A DNA stretch of 64,000 nucleotides from Holophagales bacterium. Lineage in GTDB: Bacteria > Acidobacteriota > Thermoanaerobaculia > UBA5066. Shown piece by piece: positions 21 to 10,929 of this stretch. Positions within the stretch are counted from its first letter, which is position 1; each line of letters begins with the position of its first letter. A program made the position numbers and the translations under genes. The stretch lies in NCBI GenBank assembly GCA_016714815.1, contig JADKBZ010000008.1:53513-117512 (forward strand), in the 5' to 3' direction. The notes below the pieces were generated by a model. That model was not told the origin of the DNA and ran no database searches. It saw nothing but the letters and a program-made list of their open reading frames with translations.

Positions 21-782
21 TCACTTCGCCCTCCGGGTCCGCGGCTTCTCCTCCTCGCGGGGGTGCGCCGGGCTCTCTTCGGCGGCCTGGGCCTGCCGGG
101 CCATGCTGAGGTGCTCGCCCATCAGGACGCGGGATTCGTCGGCGTCGCGGTCCTTGATCGCCCGGTAGATCTGCCGGTGCAGCTCGGCCGACTCTTTCAG
201 GTCCTTCGCCCGCTCGACGGTGACCCGGCGGTACTCGAAGACGAGCTCGGCGAGCGTGTCGATGAGCGTCGTGAGAACCGGGTTCCGCGAGCCCGCGGCG
301 ACGACCCGGTGGAACTGGAGGTCGTGGACGAGGAACGTCTGGGGGTCGTCGAGAGAGGCGAACATGCTCGTCACCTCGTCGGCGATCAGAGCGATCTGCT
401 CGGCCGTGGCCCGCTCAGCCGCCAGGCCCGCCGTCCCGACCTCGAGGACGCGCCGCGCCTCGAACATCTCGTCGCGCGTGAAGCCGTGGAGCGCCGCCAG
501 AAAGCGGAGCGGCCCGTCCCCCAGCTTCGGCGGCCCGTCGGCGATGTAGGTGCCCGAGCCCTGCCGGGCCTCGATGACGCCCATCGCCTGGAGGGTCCTG
601 AGCCCGGACCGGAGCGAGGGCCGGCTGACCTTGATCTGCAGGGCGAGGTCCCGCTCGGCCGGGAGCCGGTCCCCGGGATGGAGGCTCCCGTCCTCGATGA
701 GGCGGCGGACGTGCTCCACGACTTTTGCGCCCACGGCCCCTTCGATCTTCGGTCGTTCTCCTGCGGTCTGACCTTTTGTCAT
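21..782 (-). CDS. GntR/FadR-family transcriptional regulator (winged-HTH GntR domain plus C-terminal FadR-like FCD domain); probable regulator of the divergent kduD-eda-kdgK operon
   Basis: ORF 21..974(-) trimmed to the internal ATG at 780-782 (MTKGQTAGERPKIEGAVGAKVVEHVRRLIEDGSLHPGDRLPAERDLALQIKVSRPSLRSGLRTLQAMGVIEARQGSG.. is a GntR HTH). The upstream extension of the ORF is Arg/Gly-rich and reads as non-coding. Divergent arrangement with the sugar-acid genes. Confidence 0.8.
   Translation of the reverse strand: MTKGQTAGERPKIEGAVGAKVVEHVRRLIEDGSLHPGDRLPAERDLALQIKVSRPSLRSGLRTLQAMGVIEARQGSGTYIADGPPKLGDGPLRFLAALHGFTRDEMFEARRVLEVGTAGLAAERATAEQIALIADEVTSMFASLDDPQTFLVHDLQFHRVVAAGSRNPVLTTLIDTLAELVFEYRRVTVERAKDLKESAELHRQIYRAIKDRDADESRVLMGEHLSMARQAQAAEESPAHPREEEKPRTRRAK
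765..776. promoter_or_regulatory. Candidate GntR/FadR operator half of an inverted 12-mer pair (GGTCTGACCTTT; core palindrome GGTC-N-GACC), overlapping the regulator start codon
   Basis: Seen in sequence. It is the exact reverse complement of AAAGGTCAGACC at 983-994. The GTC..GAC palindrome core is typical of GntR-family operators (established knowledge). Binding is inferred. Confidence 0.4.
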
Positions 783-982
783 ATCACCCTCTAAGTGGTT
801 CTTCAGAGAGATAGCATCCGGGTCCAGCCGAGTCAAGCAGGAAGCGCTCGCGAAGGGCCCCGGACAGGCCGAAACGACCGCATCTCGAAGCCGTTCCTTC
901 CACCCCCCGGCGGAATACCCCGCCGGCCGGCGGGTTCCTTCCGGTCGGCCCTCTTCCGGATCGCCCCCCACCACTACGCAAG

Positions 983-994
983 AAAGGTCAGACC
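983..994. promoter_or_regulatory. Candidate GntR/FadR operator (AAAGGTCAGACC) about 19 bp upstream of the kduD start
   Basis: Exact inverted partner of the 765-776 site. Its position fits repression of kduD-eda-kdgK. Confidence 0.4.
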
Positions 995-1012
995 ATATAG
1001 ACTTCTCCGGTC

Positions 1013-1780
1013 ATGAGCACACACGACCTCTTCCGCCTCGAGGGCCGCGTCGCCCTCGTCACCGGCGCCACCTCCGGCCTCGGCGGCGCCATGGCCGAGG
1101 CCCTCGCCTCCGCCGGAGCCGACGTCGTCTGCCACGGTCTCGCCGAGCCCCCCGAGGAGACGATGGCCGCCGTCCGCGCCCACGGGCGCCGTGCCGCCGC
1201 CGTCGTCGGCGACCTGAGCCTCCCCGAGACCGCGACGCGGCTCGTCGACGAGGCCGAATCCGCCCTCGGGCCGGTCGACATCCTCGTGAACAACGCCGGG
1301 ACGATCCGCCGCGCCCCCGCCGCCGAGCACTCCGACGCGGACTGGGACCTCGTCCTCGGCGTCAACCTCTCCAGCCCCTTCCGCCTCTCCCGCGAGGTCG
1401 GGAGACGCCTCATCGCGCGCGGCGCGCACGGGAAGATCGTGAACGTCGCGTCGCTCCTCTCCTTCCAGGGCGGGATCCTCGTCCCCTCCTACGCCGCGGC
1501 GAAAGGGGGGCTCGCCCAGCTGACGAAGGCCCTCGCCAACGAGTGGGCGCCGAAGGGGATCAACGTCAACGCCATCGCCCCCGGCTACATGAGGACCGAC
1601 AACACCGCCGCCCTCCGCGCCGACGCGAACCGGAGCCGGCAGATCCTCGAGCGGATCCCCGCCGGGAGATGGGGCGAGCCGGAGGACCTCGCCGGGGTGG
1701 TCGTCTTCCTCGCCTCGTCCGCCAGCGACTACGTCAACGGCCACGTCGTCGTCGTCGACGGCGGCTGGCTGGCCAGGTAA
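1013..1780 (+). CDS. kduD: 2-dehydro-3-deoxy-D-gluconate 5-dehydrogenase-like short-chain dehydrogenase/reductase
   Basis: 255 aa. SDR motifs TGATSGLG (Rossmann), NNAG, and S..YAAAKGG (catalytic Y/K). Operon context with KDPG aldolase and KDG kinase. Confidence 0.75.
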   Translation: MSTHDLFRLEGRVALVTGATSGLGGAMAEALASAGADVVCHGLAEPPEETMAAVRAHGRRAAAVVGDLSLPETATRLVDEAESALGPVDILVNNAGTIRRAPAAEHSDADWDLVLGVNLSSPFRLSREVGRRLIARGAHGKIVNVASLLSFQGGILVPSYAAAKGGLAQLTKALANEWAPKGINVNAIAPGYMRTDNTAALRADANRSRQILERIPAGRWGEPEDLAGVVVFLASSASDYVNGHVVVVDGGWLAR

Positions 1781-1791
1781 CGGAGGCGCCC

Positions 1792-2445
1792 GTGTCCTCC
1801 CGAGCCGAGACCGTCGCCGCCCTCGAGGCGTGCGGCGTCGTCGCCGTCATCCGCCTGAAGGAGGCCGGAACTCTCCGGGCCGTCGTCGACGCCCTGGCCG
1901 CCGGAGGAGTCCTCGCCCTCGAGGTGACGATGACGGTCCCGCGCGCCCTCGAGCTCATCGCCGAGATCGCGCCGTCGCTTCCTCCCGAGATCGTTCTCGG
2001 CGCCGGGACCGTCCTCGACGCGGCGACGGCGCGGGCGGCGATCGAGGCCGGGGCGCGCTACGTCGTCAGCCCGGTCTTCCGCGAGGAGGTCCTCCGCGTC
2101 TGCCACCGCGCGGGCGTGGCCGCGATGCCCGGCTGCTTCACCCCGACCGAGATCCTGGCGGCCTCGGAGGCGGGGGCCGACGTCGTCAAGGTCTTCCCCG
2201 CCACGGCGCTCGGGCCAGGCTACTTCCGGGACCTGAGAGGTCCCTTCCCGGACCTGAGGCTCATGCCGACGGGCGGCGTTTCGCTCGCGAACGCGGGCGA
2301 CTGGATCCGCGCCGGAGCCGTGGCGATCGGCGTCGGTACGGCCCTCGTCGACGCCGGAACGGTCGCCGCCCGCCGCTTCGACGAGATCACCGAAAGGGCC
2401 CGGCAGTTCGTCGCGGCGGTCGCCGCGGCGCGGAGTGAGCGATGA
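1792..2445 (+). CDS. eda: 2-keto-3-deoxy-6-phosphogluconate (KDPG) / KHG aldolase
   Basis: GTG start at 1792 preceded by GGAGG (1783-1787). Protein VSSRAETVAALEACGVVAVIRL...GAGTVL...VSP...KVFPA is typical Eda. The 5' part of ORF 1543..2445 is Arg-rich junk. Confidence 0.8.
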   Translation: MSSRAETVAALEACGVVAVIRLKEAGTLRAVVDALAAGGVLALEVTMTVPRALELIAEIAPSLPPEIVLGAGTVLDAATARAAIEAGARYVVSPVFREEVLRVCHRAGVAAMPGCFTPTEILAASEAGADVVKVFPATALGPGYFRDLRGPFPDLRLMPTGGVSLANAGDWIRAGAVAIGVGTALVDAGTVAARRFDEITERARQFVAAVAAARSER

Positions 2446-2653
2446 AGAGAGGAAGCCCGCGCGGAGGGGTTCGGGGACCGCGAGGGGCGCTGCGGCGCCC
2501 CCTCGCGAAGACGAAGTCCACCCGGCGTCCGGGTTGGCTGCGCCTTCACCTCGCGGCCAAGCCGCTCGGCGGTCCTCCGAGATCATTGTCAGAAAAGCCC
2601 CCGTGCCTCGGGCTTTCCGTCAACGCATGTCGGGCGCAGAACGGTAGGAAGCC

Positions 2654-3682
2654 ATGAAGACGGTCATCACCTTCGGCGAGATCATGCTGAGGCTCTCCCC
2701 GCCCGGGTTCGAGCGGCTCTTCCAGTCGCCGCTCCTCGCGGCCACCTTCGGCGGCGGGGAGGCGAACGTCGCCGTCAGCCTCGCCCACTTCGGCCTCGAC
2801 AGCCGCTACGTGACGCGCCTTCCCGCCAATGCCGTCGGCGACGCCGCGCTCCGGGCCGTGCGGGCCGAAGGGGTGAACGTCGACGGGGTCCTCCGCGGCG
2901 GCGACCGCCTCGGCATCTACTTCGCCGAGACGGGCGCGAGCCAGCGCGCCGGCGTCGTGGTCTACGACCGGGCCGGTTCCGCCGTGGCCGGCGCCGGGCC
3001 CGGGGTGTTCGACTGGGCGCGGCTCCTTTCGGGAGCGGCCTGGTTTCACGTCACCGGGATCACCCCCGCCCTCGGCCCCGCCGCCGCCGCGACGACGCTC
3101 GAGGCCGTCGAGGCCGCACGCGCGGCCGGAGCGCGCGTCTCGATCGACCTCAACTTCCGAAGGAAGCTCTGGACCGAGGAGGAGGCGCAGGCCGTGATGC
3201 GGCCCCTGGCGGCGCGGGCCCACGTCGTGATCGCAAACGAGGAGGACGTCCAGGCGTGCCTCGGGCTCGCGGTGCGGGACACCGACGTGCGACGCGGCGG
3301 GCTCGACCCCGCGGCCTATCGCGAGACGGCCGTCCGGGTCGCGCGGGACTTCGGATCGGAGCTCGTCGCGATCACGCTCCGGGAGAGCCGGTCGGCAAGC
3401 CGGAACGGCTGGAGCGCCGTCCTGTGGGACGCGGCCGCGGCGGCCTTCCACGAAAGCCGGAAATACGACGTGACCCTCGTCGACCGGATCGGCGGGGGCG
3501 ACTCGTTCGCCGCCGGCCTCGTCTTCGGGCTCGTCACCGGGCGCTCCCCGGCGGAGGCGCTCGGCTTCGCGGTCGCCGCCAGCGCCCTGAAGCAGACGAT
3601 CCCGGGGGACTTCAACCGCGTGACGGTCGACGAGGTCGACCGCCTCGCGGGCGGCGACGGGAGCGGGCGGGTCCGGCGGTAG
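2654..3682 (+). CDS. kdgK: 2-dehydro-3-deoxygluconokinase (PfkB-family sugar kinase)
   Basis: 342 aa. N-terminal [18 protein letters not shown] and C-terminal [16 protein letters not shown] (PfkB signature 2). AGGAAG RBS before ATG 2654. Confidence 0.8.
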
Positions 3683-3734
3683 CGGGCGACGTCCGTCCCG
3701 GCATCCCTTTCCATCCGCCCGGCTTCACACCGTC

Positions 3735-3762
3735 TTGACACGCTCCCGCCGTCTGCTATCGT
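3735..3762 (+). promoter_or_regulatory. Putative sigma70-type promoter (TTGACA, 16-nt spacer, TATCGT) upstream of the PhoU-fusion/pst operon
   Basis: A perfect TTGACA hexamer at 3735-3740 in a roughly 70% GC genome, with an appropriately spaced -10-like TATCGT at 3757-3762. Inference only. Confidence 0.3.
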
Positions 3763-3820
3763 CCTGCGTTGCAAGGAGATAGCGGGGAGGCCGCCTCCTC
3801 TCTCGCCATCAAGGAAGCGA

Positions 3821-4927
3821 ATGCCGACCCGTCTGGAAATCTCCCTCGAACGCGACATCGACCGTATCCGCCAGGAGCTCCTCGAGATGTCCAGCCTCGC
3901 GGAGCGGGCTCTGCGGGATTGCGTCGAGTCGTTCGGCGTCGGCAACCGCCAGCGGGCCTACGCCGTCATCCTGCGCGATCAGCTCATCGACGAGAAGGAG
4001 AAGGAGATCGACCGGCTCTGCCTCGAGTTCCTCGTGCGGCAGCAGCCCGTCGGCATCCACCTCCGGCTCGCCTACAGCGCCATCAAGATCAACCTTGAGC
4101 TGGAGAGGGTCGGGGACTACGCCGAGAGCATCGCCCGGCAGGTCCTCCGCCTCGACACGCTCCCGGAGGCGCCCGCGCCGCTCCAGCGGCGGCTCGTCGA
4201 GATGGCCGACCTCTCCATCCCGATGATCCACGACGCGATCGAGGCGTTCGTGAAGCAGGACGCCGAGCTCGCGAAGGCGGTCATCGTCAGCGAGCCGGCC
4301 GTCGACGCGCTCCTCGGCAAGCTCGTCACCGAGCTCGTCGAGGAGGTCCGCGAGTCGCGGATCGTCCCGGAGATGCTCGTGGCGCTCTCCACGATCGGCC
4401 GCCGCTTCGAGCGCGTGGCGGACCAGGCCCGGAACGTCTGCATGGAGACGCTCTACATGTGCACGGGCCAGTACGCCAAGCACCCGGGCGCCGACACCTT
4501 CCGCGTCCTCTTCGTGGGCGAGCACAACGCCTGCCGGAGCCAGATGGCCGAAGCGATCGCCCAGTCGCTCGGGCAGCCGAAGTTCGTCTTCTCCAGCGCC
4601 GGCCTCGAGCCGCGAGCGATCGACCCGAGGACCTTCGCCTTCCTGAAGGAGAAGGGGTTCGACGCCCTCCACATGGCGCCGAAGGGGACCGACCAGATCC
4701 CGAACCTCGAGTACTACAACGTCGTCGTCGGGGTCGCCACCGAGGCGCAGCAGGCGTTTCCGCGCACGCCGCGAAACCTCGTCTACGTCGACTGGAGCAT
4801 CGACGACCCGTCGCGCGCCGAGGGCTCTCCCGAAGAGGTTCACGCGGCCTACGAGGCGGCGTACGAATTCCTTTCCCGCAACGTCCGGGACCTCGTTGGC
4901 GCCGTCCTCGGAATCGCCCTCGACTAG
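3821..4927 (+). CDS. Fusion protein: N-terminal PhoU-domain phosphate-signalling regulator plus C-terminal low-molecular-weight protein-tyrosine-phosphatase/ArsC-like domain with a degenerate P-loop (nucleophilic Cys replaced)
   Basis: 368 aa. Residues 1-~215 are PhoU-like helical repeats. The C-terminal part has FRVLFVGEHNACRSQMAEAIAQ (canonical C-x-G-N-x-C-R-S becomes G-E-H-N-A-C-R-S) and a downstream DWSIDDPS (D-P loop). AAGGAAG RBS. Sits directly upstream of pstSCAB in the position phoU usually occupies after pstB. Confidence 0.75.
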   Translation: MPTRLEISLERDIDRIRQELLEMSSLAERALRDCVESFGVGNRQRAYAVILRDQLIDEKEKEIDRLCLEFLVRQQPVGIHLRLAYSAIKINLELERVGDYAESIARQVLRLDTLPEAPAPLQRRLVEMADLSIPMIHDAIEAFVKQDAELAKAVIVSEPAVDALLGKLVTELVEEVRESRIVPEMLVALSTIGRRFERVADQARNVCMETLYMCTGQYAKHPGADTFRVLFVGEHNACRSQMAEAIAQSLGQPKFVFSSAGLEPRAIDPRTFAFLKEKGFDALHMAPKGTDQIPNLEYYNVVVGVATEAQQAFPRTPRNLVYVDWSIDDPSRAEGSPEEVHAAYEAAYEFLSRNVRDLVGAVLGIALD

Positions 4928-6012: not shown

Positions 6013-6942
6013 ATGAGCAGCGTGCCGTCCCCCATCCGGATCGCCCGCGCCGAGCGGTCGCGTGCCGCCGTCCTCGCGGAGAAGGCCCTCGAGGCGCTCA
6101 TCCGCCTGAGCGGCGTCAGCGCCATCCTCTTCGTCGCGGCCATCTTCTTCTTCGTCCTCAAGGAAGCCGCGCCCGTTCTCTTCAGCGAGGGGTTCTCGCT
6201 CGGGCAATTCCTCTTCAGCACCGAGTGGTACCCGACCTCGGCCAACAACGTCCGCTACGGCACCTTCGCTCTGACGGTCGGAACCCTGAGCGTCACCGCG
6301 CTCGCGATGCTCATCGCCGTTCCCTTCGGCCTCGGCGCGGCGATCTACCTCTCGGAGTTCTGCAAGCCGCGCCTGCGCGAGACGCTCAAGGTCGTCATCG
6401 AGCTCCTCTCGGCGATCCCGAGCGTCGTGTGGGGCTTCGTCGGCCTCACCGTCATGAGCAAGCTCATCGTGAACGCGACGGGCGCGCCGGTCGGCGTGAA
6501 CGTCCTCAACGGCGGGATCATCCTCGCCCTCATGAGCGTCCCCGTCATCGTCTCGATCGGCGAGGACGCCCTGAAGGCCGTCCCCGACTCCTTCCGCGAG
6601 GCGGGGGTCGCGCTCGGCGCCACGCGCTGGCAGCTCGTCTACCGCGTCCTCCTCCCCGCCGCCAGGAACGGACTCCTCGCGGCCGTCCTCCTCGGCGTCG
6701 GGCGCGCCGTGGGCGAGACGATGGCCGTCCTGATGGCGACCGGGCACGCCGTCCACATCCCCGGAAGCCTCCTCGACTCGGTCCGCACCCTCACGGCGAA
6801 CATCGCCGCCGAGCTCGGAGAGGCGCCCTCCGGCTCCGACCACTACCGCGTCCTCTTCCTCACCGGGACGCTCCTCTTCCTCATCACCCTCGTCGTGAAC
6901 CTGACGGCCGACTTCGTCGTCCGCGGGATCCGGAGGAAGTAG
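6013..6942 (+). CDS. pstC: Phosphate ABC transporter permease
   Basis: 309 aa, multi-TM, EAA-like loop, typical PstC. Confidence 0.9.
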   Translation: MSSVPSPIRIARAERSRAAVLAEKALEALIRLSGVSAILFVAAIFFFVLKEAAPVLFSEGFSLGQFLFSTEWYPTSANNVRYGTFALTVGTLSVTALAMLIAVPFGLGAAIYLSEFCKPRLRETLKVVIELLSAIPSVVWGFVGLTVMSKLIVNATGAPVGVNVLNGGIILALMSVPVIVSIGEDALKAVPDSFREAGVALGATRWQLVYRVLLPAARNGLLAAVLLGVGRAVGETMAVLMATGHAVHIPGSLLDSVRTLTANIAAELGEAPSGSDHYRVLFLTGTLLFLITLVVNLTADFVVRGIRRK

Positions 6943-6944
6943 CC

Positions 6945-7838
6945 GTGGCCGGCCGCTTCGCGAAGACCCCGCACATCGCCCGCAAGGAGATCGCCGAGTC
7001 CGTCGCCAGGAGCGTCTTCGGCCTCATGTCGGCCGCGATGATCGTGCCGCTCGTCCTGATCGTCGGATACCTCGTCGTCCTGGCGTGGCCCGCCCTGAGC
7101 CTGGAGTTCCTCCTCGACGTCCCGAAGCGCGGGATGACGGACGGCGGCATCTGGCCCGCCTTCGTCGGGACGCTCTACCTCGTCGGCATCTCGCTCCTGG
7201 TCTCCACGCCGATCGGGGTCCTCGCCGCGATCTACCTGAACGAGTACGCCAAGGACAACTGGTTCAACCGCCTCGTGAACCTCGCCGTCATCAACCTGGC
7301 GGGCGTCCCGAGCATCGTCCACGCCCTCTTCGGCCTCGGCGCCTTCGTCTACGCGGCCCGCTTCGGATACTCGATCCTCTCCGCCTCGCTGACGCTGGCC
7401 ATCATGACGCTCCCCGTCATCATCGCGAGCACGCGCGAGGCGCTCGCCTCCGTCCCGATGGCCTTCCGCGAGGCGTGCTGGAACGTCGGCGCGACGCGCT
7501 GGCAGACGGTCCGCGCCGTCGTCCTGCCGAACTCCATCAGCGGCATCCTCACCGGCGTCATCCTCCAGGTGAGCCGCGCCGCCGGAGAGACGGCCCCCGT
7601 CATGTTCACGGGGGCCGTCTTCTTCAAGGCCGTCCAGCGGGGCGACCTCTTCCCCTACGGCCTCGGCGACCAGTGCATGGCGCTCTCCATGCACCTCTAC
7701 ACGCTCGCGACCCAGGTGCCGAACGTGAAGGAGGCGCTCCCCTACGCGACGGCCGTCGTCCTCCTCGGCTCGGTCCTGCTCGTGAACGCGACCGCCATCG
7801 TGCTCCGGATCTGGCTTAGGAACCGGAAGAAGTGGTGA
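6945..7838 (+). CDS. pstA: Phosphate ABC transporter permease
   Basis: GTG start at 6945 after GGAGGAAG, 2 nt after the pstC stop. VAGRFAKTPHIARKEIAES... typical PstA. The upstream part of ORF 6225..7838 is in a different frame from pstC and Arg-rich. Confidence 0.88.
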   Translation: MAGRFAKTPHIARKEIAESVARSVFGLMSAAMIVPLVLIVGYLVVLAWPALSLEFLLDVPKRGMTDGGIWPAFVGTLYLVGISLLVSTPIGVLAAIYLNEYAKDNWFNRLVNLAVINLAGVPSIVHALFGLGAFVYAARFGYSILSASLTLAIMTLPVIIASTREALASVPMAFREACWNVGATRWQTVRAVVLPNSISGILTGVILQVSRAAGETAPVMFTGAVFFKAVQRGDLFPYGLGDQCMALSMHLYTLATQVPNVKEALPYATAVVLLGSVLLVNATAIVLRIWLRNRKKW

Positions 7839-7842
7839 CGGC

Positions 7843-8631
7843 GTGACGGAGAGCGCGACCCACGCCCCGGCGAGCCCGGTGAAGGAGATCGAGGTCTCGG
7901 ACCTCCGCCTCGCCTACGGGGGCAAGGAGGTGATCCACGGGATCTCCTTCAACGTCCACCGCAACGAGATCCTCGCCGTCATCGGACCGGCGCAGTCGGG
8001 CAAGACCTCGATGCTCCGCTGCCTGAACCGGACGATCGACTTCACCGCCTCGGCCTCGGTCTCGGGGTGCGTGAAGGTGGGCGGCCAGGACGTGCGGGCG
8101 ATGAAGGACGTCTTCGCCCTGAGGCGCCGGATCGGGATGGTCGCGCCGCTTCCGACGGGCCTCCCGCTCTCGATCTACGACAACGTCGCCTTCGCCCCCC
8201 GCTGCTCGGGCGTGACGCGCAAGGCCGACCTCGAGCCCGTCGTCGAGAAGTGCCTCCGGCAGGCCGCCCTCTGGGACGAGGTGAAGGACCGGCTCGACAG
8301 CCTCGGCACGGCCCTCTCCGGCGGGCAGCAGCAGCGCCTCACGATCGCCCGGGCGCTCTCGCACCAGCCCGAGATCCTCTGCCTCGACGAGTTCTCGATC
8401 GCCATCGACCCCGTGACGACGATGCGGATCGAGGACGTCCTCAAGGAGCTGCGCGAGGAGATCACCATCATCCTCGTGACGAACCTGACGCAGCAGGCCC
8501 GGCGGCTCTCCGACCGGACGATGTTCCTCCTGGAGGGCGACATCGTCGAGATCGACGCGACCGACGTCATCTACTCCGGCGAGTCGAAGAGCGAGAAGAC
8601 GCGCGGCTACGTCAGCGGGATGTTCGGATGA
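7843..8631 (+). CDS. pstB: Phosphate ABC transporter ATP-binding protein paralog 1 (signature motif intact, H-loop His replaced by Asn)
   Basis: Walker A GPAQSGKTS, signature LSGGQQQR, Walker B ILCLDEFS. The H-loop reads VTNLTQQA where the canonical form is VTHNMxQA. Confidence 0.85.
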   Translation: MTESATHAPASPVKEIEVSDLRLAYGGKEVIHGISFNVHRNEILAVIGPAQSGKTSMLRCLNRTIDFTASASVSGCVKVGGQDVRAMKDVFALRRRIGMVAPLPTGLPLSIYDNVAFAPRCSGVTRKADLEPVVEKCLRQAALWDEVKDRLDSLGTALSGGQQQRLTIARALSHQPEILCLDEFSIAIDPVTTMRIEDVLKELREEITIILVTNLTQQARRLSDRTMFLLEGDIVEIDATDVIYSGESKSEKTRGYVSGMFG

Positions 8632-9401
8632 GCGCCGAGCCGCACGCCATCGAGACCCGGGGACTCTCCCTCTGGTACGGGAGCTTCCAGGCGCTCTTCG
8701 ACGTCTCCACCGACATCCGGAGCGGGATCATCACCTCCCTCATCGGCCCGAGCGGCTGCGGGAAGACCACGCTCCTGCGCTGCTTCAACCGCGTGAACGA
8801 ACGCTACGGGAACGTGAGGACGGCGGGCGAGATCCGGATCCTCGGCGAGAGCATCTACGATCCGGACGTCTCCCTCATCGAGCTGCGCAAGGCCGTGGGG
8901 ATGGTCTTCCAGCGCCCGAATCCGCTCCCCATCTCGGTCTACGAGAACGTCGTCTTCGGCCTCCGGGTCCACACCCCCCGCACCGACCTGAAGCGCTCCG
9001 TCCTCGACGAGGCGGTGGAGAAGGCCCTCACCGAGGTCGGCCTCTGGAAGGACCTGAAGGACCGCCTGAAGACGAAGGCGACGGGCCTCCTCCTCGAGCA
9101 GCAGCAGAAGCTCTGCCTCGCCCGCCTCCTCCCGCTCAAGCCCGAGGTCATCCTGATGGACGAGCCCGCCTCCGCCCTCGACGTCGGCGGGACGCGCGCC
9201 ATCGAGGAGCTGATGTTCGAGCTGGCCGGGAAGTACACGATCGTCATCGTGACGCACAACATGGCCCAGGCGCGGCGGGCGAGCGACGAGTGCATCTTCA
9301 TGCTCATGGGCAAGGTCGTCGAGCACGCGCGGACCGAGGACCTCTTCCTCAACCCGCAGAACCCGAAGACCGCGGAGTACATCGAAGGCCGCTACGCGTA
9401 G
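8628..9401 (+). CDS. pstB: Phosphate ABC transporter ATP-binding protein paralog 2 (Walker A and H-loop intact, signature motif degenerate)
   Basis: ATGA start/stop overlap with pstB1. Walker A GPSGCGKTT, Walker B ILMDEPASALD, H-loop VTHNMAQA. The LSGGQ signature is replaced by LLLEQQQK. Confidence 0.88.
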   Translation: MSAEPHAIETRGLSLWYGSFQALFDVSTDIRSGIITSLIGPSGCGKTTLLRCFNRVNERYGNVRTAGEIRILGESIYDPDVSLIELRKAVGMVFQRPNPLPISVYENVVFGLRVHTPRTDLKRSVLDEAVEKALTEVGLWKDLKDRLKTKATGLLLEQQQKLCLARLLPLKPEVILMDEPASALDVGGTRAIEELMFELAGKYTIVIVTHNMAQARRASDECIFMLMGKVVEHARTEDLFLNPQNPKTAEYIEGRYA

Positions 9402-9501
9402 GCGACCGGCCACGCGGCGGGCCCCCCTCGCGGGGAGCTGAGCCCGGCCGGGCGGACACCCCGCGCGCGATCCCTATACTCCGCGCCACCGGCCCGACGG
9501 A

Positions 9502-10929
9502 ATGGTCTTCAGCACCTCCCTCTTCCTCCTCTTCTTCCTCCCCGCGTTCCTCGCGGGCTACCACCTCCTTCCCCGGCCCGCCCGGAACACCTTCGTCCTC
9601 CTGGCGAGCGCCCTCTTCTACGCCTGGGGCGCCCCGCGCTTCCTCTTCGTCGTCCTCGGCGTCACGTTCCTCGACTTCCACTTCGTGAAGAGGATGGCCG
9701 CGGCGAACGGCCCTGCGCGCAAGCGGGCCTGGCTCGTCGCCTCGCTCGCCATGAACCTCGGCCTCCTCGGCTATTTCAAGTACGCGGGGTTCTTCGTCGG
9801 GAACGTCAACGCGCTCCTCGGCGCCGCGGGGCTCGGCCCGCTTCCGTGGGCCGAGGTCTTCCTCCCGCTCGGAATCTCCTTCTACACGTTCGAGACGGTG
9901 ACCTACGTCGTCGACGTCTACCGGGGCGTCCACGCGCCGCTCGGCCGCTTCGCCGACTACCAGCTCTACATCCTCTTCTTCCCAAAGCTCCTCGCCGGGC
10001 CGATCGTCCGCTTCCACGAGATCGCCGACCAGATCGGCGACCGCTCGCGGTACGAGACGGCGGGACGCTTCCTCGGCGGCTTCGTCCGCTTCGTCCTCGG
10101 GCTCGCGAAGAAGGTGCTGATCGCCGACGTCCTCGGGGTGACGGTGAGGAAGGGCTTCGCGCTCGACGCGGCGGCCCTCGACGCGCCGGCCGCGTGGCTC
10201 CTCCTCGCCGCATTCCTGACACAGATCTACTTCGACTTCTCCGGCTACAGCGACATGGCCCTCGGCCTGGCGGCGATGGTCGGCTTCCGCCTGCCGGAGA
10301 ACTTCCGGGACCCGTTCGTCTCGACGAGCGTGACGGAGTTCTGGACCCGCTGGCACGTCACGCTCTCGGCGTGGATGCGCAGCTACCTCTACGTCCCGCT
10401 CGGCGGGAACCGGCTCGGAACCCGCCGGACGCTCGCGAACCTCTGGATCGTCTTCCTCGTCTCCGGCCTGTGGCACGGGGCGGCCTGGCACTACGTCCTC
10501 TGGGGGGCGTGGCACGGGCTCTTCATCGTGGCGGAGCGGACGGCCTTCGGCCGGCTCCTCGCGAAGGCCGGCCCGGTCGCGGGTCGGGCCTACGTCTTCC
10601 TCGCGGTCGTCGCCTCGATGGCGCTCTTCCGTCCCGCGGGCCTCCTCTCCGAGAACCTCCGGACCCTCGCCGCCCTCGCCGGGGGCGGCTCCGGCACCGC
10701 CGCGCTCCCGCTCGACCGGGAGTTCGCCGTCACGCTCGGCGTGGCCCTCGTCTTCACCTTTTTCGCGGCGCTCCCGGGCGCCGCCGCGATCCAGCGACTC
10801 GTCTTCGACGACGACCCGTCCCTGCCCCGCCAGCTGGCGCTCGTCCCGGCGGCGGGCCTTCTCCTCCTCCTCTGCCTTTCGATGGTCGCCTGGTCCCCGT
10901 TCAGCCCGTTCGTCTACTTCCGGTTCTGA
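9502..10929 (+). CDS. MBOAT-family membrane-bound O-acyltransferase (AlgI/DltB/PatA-like)
   Basis: 475 aa, polytopic. Conserved MBOAT His region WHGAAWHYVLWGAWHG. Confidence 0.85.
   Translation: MVFSTSLFLLFFLPAFLAGYHLLPRPARNTFVLLASALFYAWGAPRFLFVVLGVTFLDFHFVKRMAAANGPARKRAWLVASLAMNLGLLGYFKYAGFFVGNVNALLGAAGLGPLPWAEVFLPLGISFYTFETVTYVVDVYRGVHAPLGRFADYQLYILFFPKLLAGPIVRFHEIADQIGDRSRYETAGRFLGGFVRFVLGLAKKVLIADVLGVTVRKGFALDAAALDAPAAWLLLAAFLTQIYFDFSGYSDMALGLAAMVGFRLPENFRDPFVSTSVTEFWTRWHVTLSAWMRSYLYVPLGGNRLGTRRTLANLWIVFLVSGLWHGAAWHYVLWGAWHGLFIVAERTAFGRLLAKAGPVAGRAYVFLAVVASMALFRPAGLLSENLRTLAALAGGGSGTAALPLDREFAVTLGVALVFTFFAALPGAAAIQRLVFDDDPSLPRQLALVPAAGLLLLLCLSMVAWSPFSPFVYFRF

Follow-up and report, generated by a model that had tools for sequence, protein, structure and literature searches.

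The gene described here lies in a 64,000-nucleotide stretch (the window) of the genome of Holophagales bacterium (Acidobacteriota, Thermoanaerobaculia; contig JADKBZ010000008.1 of assembly GCA_016714815.1, positions 53,513 to 117,512 of the forward strand), and encodes a PhoU protein fused to a domain that resembles the thioredoxin (Trx)-coupled arsenate reductase ArsC. What can be observed directly is the identity of both domains, the loss of the catalytic residues of the second, the pattern in which the remaining residues are conserved, the membership of the gene in a pst operon for phosphate import, and its strict co-occurrence with a pair of non-identical ATPase genes, pstB1 and pstB2. The best explanation of these features appears to be that the gene specifies a PhoU-type regulator devoted to a separate, Pho-regulated form of the Pst importer with an asymmetric ATPase. 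The novelty lies in the fusion being bound to a cassette with an asymmetric PstB1/PstB2 pair, in at least 592 species.

A Single Gene for a Two-Domain Protein

The gene and the parts of its product are located as follows.

3811..3817, + strand: ribosome-binding site AAGGAAG of the fusion gene, read in the sequence
3821..4927, + strand: PhoU / pseudo-ArsC fusion gene, ATG to TAG, 368 amino acids (aa)
3821..4474, + strand: PhoU domain, residues 1-218, two PhoU repeats forming a six-helix bundle (TIGR02135, PF01895, Foldseek)
4475..4498, + strand: inter-domain linker, residues 219-226 (low model confidence, below 50, at residues 219-224)
4499..4912, + strand: pseudo-ArsC domain, residues 227-364 (PF01451, TIGR02691 below its cutoff, Foldseek)
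4514..4540, + strand: degenerate P-loop V232-G-E-H-N-A-C-R-S240 (ungapped HMMER alignments, MAFFT)
4802..4810, + strand: Asp328-Asp329-Pro330, in which Asp329 corresponds to the general acid Asp105 of ArsC (alignment; 80 of 80 close and mid-distance sequences)

An earlier note, made from the sequence alone, had described a single gene with a PhoU-like N-terminal part of ~215 residues and a C-terminal part with the fold of low-molecular-weight protein-tyrosine phosphatases (LMW-PTP) and ArsC, and domain searches bear out both halves of this description. The N-terminal half matches phoU_full (TIGR02135, NCBIfam) over residues 9-217 with 160.6 bits against a cutoff of 130.25, and PF01895 (Pfam) in two stretches (E 4.4e-33). 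An E-x3-D motif occurs once per PhoU repeat (E95-R-V-G-D99 and E197-R-V-A-D201), and E95, R96, D99 and R198 are unchanged in 94 diverse fusions. The C-terminal half matches LMWPc (PF01451, Pfam; residues 229-358) with 47.7 bits against a gathering score of 23.2, and arsC_pI258 (TIGR02691) with 64 bits, under the cutoff of 174.3, while none of the curated Pfam and NCBIfam models covers both halves of the protein.

An AlphaFold2 model made from 145 homologues has a mean predicted local distance difference test (pLDDT) of 91 and a predicted template modeling (TM) score (pTM) of 0.61, with linker residues 219-224 alone falling below a pLDDT of 50. Taken together, the two scores mean that the domains are well defined singly, their mutual orientation not being fixed by the model. 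In Foldseek searches of the PDB, the N-terminal half of the model superposes on the PhoU structures 1t72, 4q25 and 2i0m with TM scores of 0.93-0.94, and the C-terminal half on the Trx-type ArsC structures 8p6m, 1jl3 and 1jf8 with TM scores of 0.83-0.89, its matches to true LMW tyrosine/arginine phosphatases being lower (0.65-0.70). By sequence and predicted fold, the C-terminal half derives from a Trx-coupled arsenate reductase.

Could the gene be an artefact, a phoU and an arsC joined by a frameshift or a mis-assembly? The chance of this is negligible. The identical 368-aa protein is encoded in four independent assemblies (a JGI metagenome, the NCBI metagenome-assembled genome (MAG) GCA_020054605.1 and two Logan assemblies), with the same neighbour genes on all four contigs, and both Pfam domains are present in 120 of the 120 closest protein clusters (73-95% identity). 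An exhaustive phmmer search, reduced to 50%-identity representatives, gave ~100 full-length fusions of 330-470 aa, with identity down to 27%, and the best 80 loci, with one genome per species, all cover the query almost end to end. The G+C content at third codon positions (GC3) of the open reading frame is 0.92 and even from end to end, in a window of 70.8% G+C. The four assemblies, the protein clusters, the full-length relatives and the even GC3 refute the artefact, and the reading as one gene without a frameshift stands. Short ArsC-only gene calls (49-93% identity) are fragments on short or error-prone contigs, and include part of the PhoU helix.

An Arsenate Reductase Fold without its Catalytic Cysteines

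The P-loop VLFVGEHNACRSQMAE aligns without gaps in HMMER with IYFLCTGNSCRSQMAE of five solved ArsC proteins, and MAFFT agrees (8p5n, 1jl3, 2l17 and 2ipa are among the solved ArsC used as alignment references). Gly233 (GGC, 4517..4519) is in register with the nucleophilic Cys10, as the earlier note had read it, and the catalytic motif is G-x5-R-S, not C-x5-R-(S/T). A shifted alignment that would conceal a cysteine is ruled out, since no gaps occur in the alignment and eight identical residues (N-x-C-R-S-Q-M-A-E) pin it in place; the sole cysteine of the pseudo-ArsC domain, Cys238, is the equivalent of Cys15. The cysteines of the disulfide relay, which that note had left unmentioned, are also absent, Cys82 being replaced by Ala306 and Cys89 by Phe313, and likewise in 24 of 24 close relatives, so that the loss of catalysis extends further than the nucleophile alone. 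With Cys10, Cys82 and Cys89 all gone, thiol chemistry would be impossible for this ArsC-like domain, and its reading as a pseudo-enzyme, predicted to work only by binding, looks solid.

Much of the remaining active site is kept (residues of ArsC in brackets): Asn236 (Asn13), Cys238 (Cys15), Arg239 (Arg16), Ser240 (Ser17), Glu244, Ser259-Ala-Gly261 and Asp329-Pro330, the latter within DWSIDDPS at residues 324-331. The arginine and the Asp-Pro loop, said earlier to be retained, are thus indeed in place. The loop is not necessarily deformed by the Glu-His pair at its positions 11-12, because the active ArsC of Synechocystis (2l17), with the P-loop C-K-R-N-S-C-R-S, has non-glycine residues at the same positions.

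A protein search with the C-terminal domain only revealed neither a free-standing pseudo-ArsC nor a fusion to another partner; it returned fragments of the fusion gene (at least 49% identity), followed by ordinary free ArsC (at most 40%) with the full C-R-C-C-D set. The pseudo-ArsC domain occurs only joined to PhoU. Some short calls of 84-208 aa (P0395-P0446), with 49-86% identity to the C-terminal domain and JGI names such as 'arsenate reductase' or 'protein-tyrosine-phosphatase', seem to be parts of the fusion gene that gene calling truncated or split. Two free-standing ArsC-like proteins (P0489 and P0507) have an apparent glycine in the Cys10 column and keep Arg16, Cys82, Cys89 and Asp105; their glycine could be an alignment artefact or another route of inactivation.

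A Six-Gene Cassette with an Asymmetric ATPase Pair

Downstream of the fusion gene, five genes complete the operon, with the pstA start placed as in the 297-aa call made for this gene on the identical contig L003.

4953..5948, + strand: pstS, phosphate-binding protein (TIGR02136, 230.5 bits against 206.6; PF12849)
6013..6942, + strand: pstC, permease (TIGR02138, 277 bits against 196.45)
6945..7838, + strand: pstA, permease (TIGR00974, 261.6 bits against 193.45)
7843..8631, + strand: pstB1, degenerate ATPase subunit (TIGR00972, 271.5 bits, under 343.2)
8628..9401, + strand: pstB2, ATPase subunit with a degenerate signature (TIGR00972, 316.4 bits, under 343.2)

The gap from the stop codon of the fusion gene to the pstS start is 25 nt, and the start of pstB2 overlaps the stop codon of pstB1. 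Read by alignment with E. coli PstB and orthologues, PstB1 has the Walker A motif GPAQSGKT, the Walker B motif LDEF and an intact LSGGQQQR signature, with the glutamine of the Q-loop replaced by proline and the histidine of the H-loop by asparagine. The ATP-side motifs of PstB2 are all canonical, and its signature is LLLEQQQK instead of LSGGQQQR. In a head-to-tail ATPase dimer, such complementary motifs would give one consensus site, made of the ATP-side motifs of PstB2 and the signature of PstB1, and one degenerate site, made of the ATP-side motifs of PstB1 and the signature of PstB2. The motifs imply that PstB1 and PstB2 form a fixed heterodimer with one predicted non-hydrolytic ATP site.

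This arrangement recurs in the relatives. Among 85 distinct loci with a full-length fusion, both ATPase genes are reached in 64, and all 64 loci that are long enough have the complementary PstB1/PstB2 pattern, with a PstB2 signature of the form LxLEQ; the other 21 end after a PstB1-type gene (5) or earlier (16). No canonical pstB was found downstream of the fusion in any of the 85. The fusion firmly belongs to one six-gene cassette, with the order fusion-pstS-pstC-pstA-pstB1-pstB2 in most loci, and pstS-fusion-pstC-pstA-pstB1-pstB2 in a distant subfamily and in locus L060. The pstS-first loci often have phoB and phoR alongside, and 24 of the 85 loci have PhoR- or PhoB-like genes no farther than 7 kb from the fusion. 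In the window itself, tblastn found no second PhoU and no ArsC, PhoR or PhoB.

Upstream of the fusion gene, two overlapping elements were identified.

3724..3741, + strand: Pho-box-like direct repeat TTCACAC-cgtc-TTGACAC, two 7-nt repeats with an 11-nt period, overlapping the -35 element
3735..3762, + strand: sigma-70-type promoter-like site TTGACA-N16-TATCGT, 10 of 12 matches, with TG before the -10 element

Between 3500 and 9700, two promoter-like sites were found against 0.2 expected from shuffled sequences, and no terminator-like site. Heptamer repeats with an 11-nt period are the architecture of Pho boxes, the binding sites of PhoB and PhoP. Comparable repeats with this period lie upstream of the fusion in loci L010, L020, L027, L029, L043, L005, L033 and L048, which include unrelated taxa from several phyla (for example TTGTCAC-N4-TTGTCAC in L027 and CGTCACC-N4-CGTCACC in L020). 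Given the Pho-box-like repeat at the promoter, to which PhoB would bind, the cassette is most probably an operon of the Pho regulon that has its own PhoU at the head. The position at the head of a pst operon that the earlier note had assigned to the gene is supported. Between promoter and start codon, the 5' leader GTTGCAAGGAGATAGCGGGGAGGCCGCCTCCTCTCTCGCCA (~3768..3808) is conserved in the closest relatives, and is shared with loci L009 and L010. As a candidate RNA element it was dropped, with no Rfam match and a fold no better than that of shuffled sequences (z = -0.02).

As had been noticed before, no phoU follows pstB2, and the next gene, at 9502, encodes an MBOAT acyltransferase. Does the fusion then replace the stand-alone phoU, as was also proposed? 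Generally it does not, since a canonical pstSCAB-phoU operon adjoins the fusion operon in L016 (Vicinamibacteria, 69% identical), L069, L071, L079 and L087. In the latter four, the canonical operon has a single pstB with intact motifs followed by a phoU of 211-217 aa; L016 has the same arrangement, its upstream pstB having been read directly. In L084, a short phoU (221 aa) lies beside an incompletely read pstB. The fusion is not a simple phoU replacement; in relatives with both operons, it is an additional PhoU, reserved for an additional, variant transporter.

The genes on either side of the cassette belong to other functions. Where phoU normally sits, a promoter-like site (9453..9480) precedes a gene for an MBOAT-family membrane O-acyltransferase (9502..10929). 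Upstream, the region 21..3682 is a cluster for the catabolism of hexuronate / 2-keto-3-deoxygluconate, with genes for a divergent GntR/FCD regulator (minus strand), then a KduD-like short-chain dehydrogenase, an aldolase of the KDPG/KHG type and a kinase of the PfkB family. The cluster has no relation to the pst cassette, and is syntenic in L001-L003.

Distribution of the Family and Fate of the Active Site

The earlier note had proposed a survey of homologous fusions in related genomes, and relatives were found in at least 592 species genomes (out of at least 600 pattern matches) from about ten phyla; the fusion is not rare. The best 80 loci come from Acidobacteriota (Thermoanaerobaculia, Vicinamibacteria and Holophagae), Verrucomicrobiota, Myxococcota, Fibrobacterota, Lentisphaerae, Poribacteria, Eisenbacteria, Raymondbacteria, KSB1 and Desulfobacterales, and include one cultured isolate, Limisphaera sp. 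VF-2. A more distant subfamily occurs in MAGs labelled Nitrospirae and Gammaproteobacteria. In their sources, the fusions are annotated merely as 'phosphate signaling complex protein PhoU' or 'phosphate transport system protein'.

The fate of the former active site depends on the distance from the present protein. Relatives more than 70% identical have the P-loop [G/D]-E-H-N-A-C-R-S and keep D-D-P throughout. At 50-59% identity the loop is D-E-H-N-[SA]-C-R-S, with Arg16 in 50 of 56 relatives and Asn13, Ser17, Asp105 and Pro106 in all 56. Over these close and mid-distance groups (to ~50% identity), Arg16 is present in 74 of 80 sequences, and Asn13, Ser17 and Asp105-Pro are invariant. Among 101 diverse representatives of the family, the Cys10 position is occupied by Asp in 77, Glu in 7 and Ser in 6, and the Arg16 position by Leu in 42, Ala in 18 and Arg in 15, with Asp105 retained in 29. 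In the 85 distinct species loci, the Cys10 position holds Asp (69), Gly (9), Glu (2), Ala (2), Cys (1) or Ser (1), the Gly codon GGC being one base away from the Asp codon GAC. Several members without Arg16 have a nearest neighbour that possesses it, at 57-83% identity, from which repeated and independent losses of this residue can be deduced.

Despite these changes, the C-terminal domain is as conserved as the PhoU half, with mean pairwise identities of 0.83 and 0.82, respectively, in the clade, and of 0.56 and 0.58 between the close and the mid-distance group, which argues for a functional rather than a decaying domain. In the close and mid-distance groups, invariance reaches at least 97% at 30 of the 137 positions of the C-terminal domain. 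They include N236, S240, E244, S259, G261, W325, D329 and P330, the scaffold of the ArsC active site, and the positions R228, P264, K288, Q292, P294, N295, Y299 and Y344, whose invariance is specific to the subfamily. This pattern points to an oxyanion cradle under purifying selection in the clade of the present gene and dispensable family-wide.

Possible Functions of the Pseudo-ArsC Domain

How could a PhoU protein make use of a former arsenate reductase? By analogy with E. coli PhoU, the PhoU half would bind to the PstB subunits and either hold transport back or report on it. Gly233 would open the pocket of the kept oxyanion cradle (Asn13, Arg16, Ser17, Asp105-Pro, Ser-Ala-Gly and the Glu21 scaffold), and the likeliest role of the pseudo-ArsC domain would be to bind a phosphate-like group, inorganic phosphate or arsenate, without catalysis, thereby tuning the brake that PhoU exerts on the transporter. 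The contact between PhoU and PstB, the binding of a ligand and its allosteric effect are all steps that we infer, and for this clade we consider it an evenly balanced proposition that non-catalytic binding of phosphate or arsenate at the anion cradle modulates the PhoU brake or signal on the transporter. The phosphate-sensing P-loop suggested in the earlier note is in this respect plausible for the clade, given the retention of Arg16 and the invariant Asn13, Ser17 and Asp105-Pro reported above, and does not extend to the whole family.

Several observations weigh against ligand binding at the cradle. At the Cys10 position the commonest residue, in 69 of 85 loci, is Asp, an anion that would repel phosphate, and the Gly of the present protein is a derived minority state (9 of 85). 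Arg16, present in 59 of the 85 loci, is absent in 26, and Asp105 is lost in 17; in the subfamily at ~30% identity, with the loop D-E-D-N-S-C-L-S, each of the two residues is found in just 4 of 64 members. With such losses, oxyanion binding cannot be what maintains the domain family-wide. The model, for its part, leaves the inter-domain geometry unfixed (pTM 0.61). The same losses favor the main rival, according to which the domain would bind no small ligand and would serve purely as a docking or scaffold module that anchors or orients PhoU on the asymmetric PstB1/PstB2 pair, for instance on the side of the degenerate site. Domain, length and cassette persist where Arg16 and Asp105 are gone and where Asp prevails at the Cys10 position; the residues conserved family-wide belong mainly to the fold core (L230, F231, A243, S259-A260-G261, G279, P317, W325 and L358), co-occurrence with the asymmetric ATPase pair is strict (64/64), and the subfamily-specific invariant positions listed above lie outside the P-loop. 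Docking is hard to reconcile, however, with the clade and its relatives at 50-60% identity, where N236, S240, E244, D329 and P330 are kept in 100% of sequences and R239 in 74 of 80, as would not be expected of an irrelevant pocket; we regard it as a possible explanation, on the unlikely side. A more ambitious version of ligand binding, which must be called doubtful, would make the cassette an unrecognised class of phosphate importer with feedback: an ArsC-derived sensor would read cytoplasmic phosphate, arsenate or a metal-oxyanion complex, the latter sitting at the D/E/H-rich former P-loop, and would signal to the non-hydrolytic site of the permanently asymmetric PstB1/PstB2 pair, so that uptake would be throttled or arsenate blocked at the transporter independently of the canonical PstSCAB-PhoU-PhoR circuit, which is present as well in some of these genomes.

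Two further explanations can be considered, both improbable. The domain might read phosphorylated proteins in the manner of STYX, binding a phosphorylated residue of a partner (PhoR~P or PhoB~P) without hydrolysing it, as suggested by the Cys-to-Gly logic of STYX, by the PhoR- or PhoB-like genes near the fusion in 24 of 85 loci, and by the fact that enzymes of the LMW-PTP fold such as YwlE bind phospho-amino acids. Yet the domain is nearest to ArsC, which acts on free oxyanions, and not to protein phosphatases (TM scores of 0.83-0.89 against 0.65-0.70), most relatives have Asp rather than Gly at the position of the nucleophile and many are devoid of the arginine, and neither phoR nor phoB is present within the 64 kb window; this makes such a reader improbable. 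Residual catalysis, Asp- or metal-based and involving the D/E-H residues with Asp329, or using Cys238 as a nucleophile, is slightly more improbable still, and less to be expected for a Gly-bearing protein. It would account for an Asp at the Cys10 position that is better conserved than Arg16 (69 of 85 loci), for the cluster of acidic residues and His at positions 10-12 (D-E-H, D-D-D or D-E-D), and for Cys238 being kept in most of the subfamily. Position 233 is nevertheless Gly in the present protein, Cys15 is dispensable in ArsC (C15A variants were crystallised as functional states, 1jf8 and 1lju), and the Cys82/Cys89 relay that would reduce arsenate is missing; to our knowledge, there is no precedent for Asp- or metal-based chemistry in the LMW-PTP/ArsC fold.

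Whichever of these explanations applies, the family bears on a long-standing open question, namely how PhoU and PstB sense phosphate sufficiency and relay it. Two natural changes that go together, an ex-enzyme added to PhoU and a broken symmetry of PstB, are available in at least 592 species, mostly of uncultured or little-studied phyla. If the pseudo-ArsC domain binds phosphate or arsenate, it would offer a direct handle on the signal read by PhoU; if it docks on the degenerate ATPase subunit, it would define the PhoU-PstB interface. With the fusions annotated as plain 'PhoU', and their fragments as 'arsenate reductase' or 'protein-tyrosine-phosphatase', the family stays hidden, and arsenic-resistance (arsC) genes can be overcounted in metagenomes.

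Comparison with Known Systems

In open-access full texts and bioRxiv, no paper was found on a PhoU-ArsC or PhoU-LMW-PTP fusion, nor on complementary degenerate motifs in PstB pairs, and the earlier statement that the fusion is undescribed holds for this literature. The architecture is not categorically new, being abundant and visible in domain databases through the precomputed PF01895 and PF01451 matches.

With ordinary PhoU (1t72, 4q25, 1sum), the fusion protein shares the two-repeat six-helix bundle, the E-x3-D motifs and the encoding in a pst operon. It differs by the extra C-terminal domain of 150 aa, by its place at the operon head (or between pstS and pstC in the distant subfamily), ordinary phoU following pstB, and by the PstB1/PstB2 pair that it accompanies, where ordinary PhoU goes with a single pstB. 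That PhoU binds PstB and PhoR is established in E. coli (Gardner et al. 2014, cited in PMC12096839).

With Trx-coupled ArsC of the pI258 / B. subtilis type (1jl3, 1ljl, 8p5n), the pseudo-ArsC domain has in common the fold (TM 0.83-0.89), the N-x-C-R-S-Q-M-A-E tail of the P-loop, the Ser-Ala-Gly motif and the W-x-x-D-D-P loop. Unlike ArsC, it is devoid of Cys10, Cys82 and Cys89, is never free-standing, and would not reduce arsenate by the known mechanism. Three of ~104 full-length representatives are PhoU proteins fused to an apparently active ArsC that keeps Cys10, Cys82, Cys89, Arg16 and Asp105: P0162 (L090:2977-4077), P0242 (L089:1027-2154) and P0230 (L091:202-1287). P0162 and P0242 are immediately preceded by a pstB in which every motif is canonical; the contig of P0230 retains only the end of the pstB upstream, where the H-loop (VTHN) is canonical, and a gene for a response regulator then follows. 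These proteins have the same PhoU-then-ArsC order as the pseudo-ArsC fusion, and differ from it by their intact catalytic residues. Their ArsC halves are nearest to different free ArsC (relatedness of the C-terminal domains being taken from nearest-neighbour lists and not from a midpoint-rooted neighbour-joining tree), which suggests independent fusions; PhoU and ArsC have probably been joined more than once, and the fusions with intact ArsC probably tether arsenate reduction to the phosphate transporter. Arsenate enters cells via phosphate transporters. At the level of gene neighbourhoods, pst/pho genes cluster with arsenic genes (PMC3834237). Such entry and such clustering, when combined, would point to an arsenate-related origin of the architecture.

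Pseudophosphatases provide an analogy for the loss of the nucleophile. In STYX-type proteins, the catalytic Cys of the Cys-x5-Arg loop is naturally Gly and the Arg remains, so that a former enzyme serves as a binding module; STYX itself is reportedly the eukaryotic pseudophosphatase for which Wishart and Dixon defined this Cys-to-Gly logic. The likeness is one of analogy only, as STYX is eukaryotic, has a dual-specificity phosphatase fold and is not fused to a transport regulator.

As for the ATPase pair, several heterodimeric ATP-binding cassette (ABC) transporters, such as TM287/288, TAP1/2 and CFTR, have one degenerate ATP site, and PstB1/PstB2 share with them the split pattern of degenerate motifs (Q- and H-loop on one subunit, signature on the other). 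These transporters are exporters with fused transmembrane domains, whereas the cassette encodes a binding-protein-dependent importer with separate ATPase subunits. Tandem pstB1/pstB2 genes are also known from Firmicutes (Enterococcus faecalis), both with canonical motifs and accompanied by an ordinary phoU (PMC12096839). Two adjacent, non-identical pstB genes in one pst operon are common to both systems, which differ in that the pair of the PhoU / pseudo-ArsC cassette has complementary degenerate motifs.

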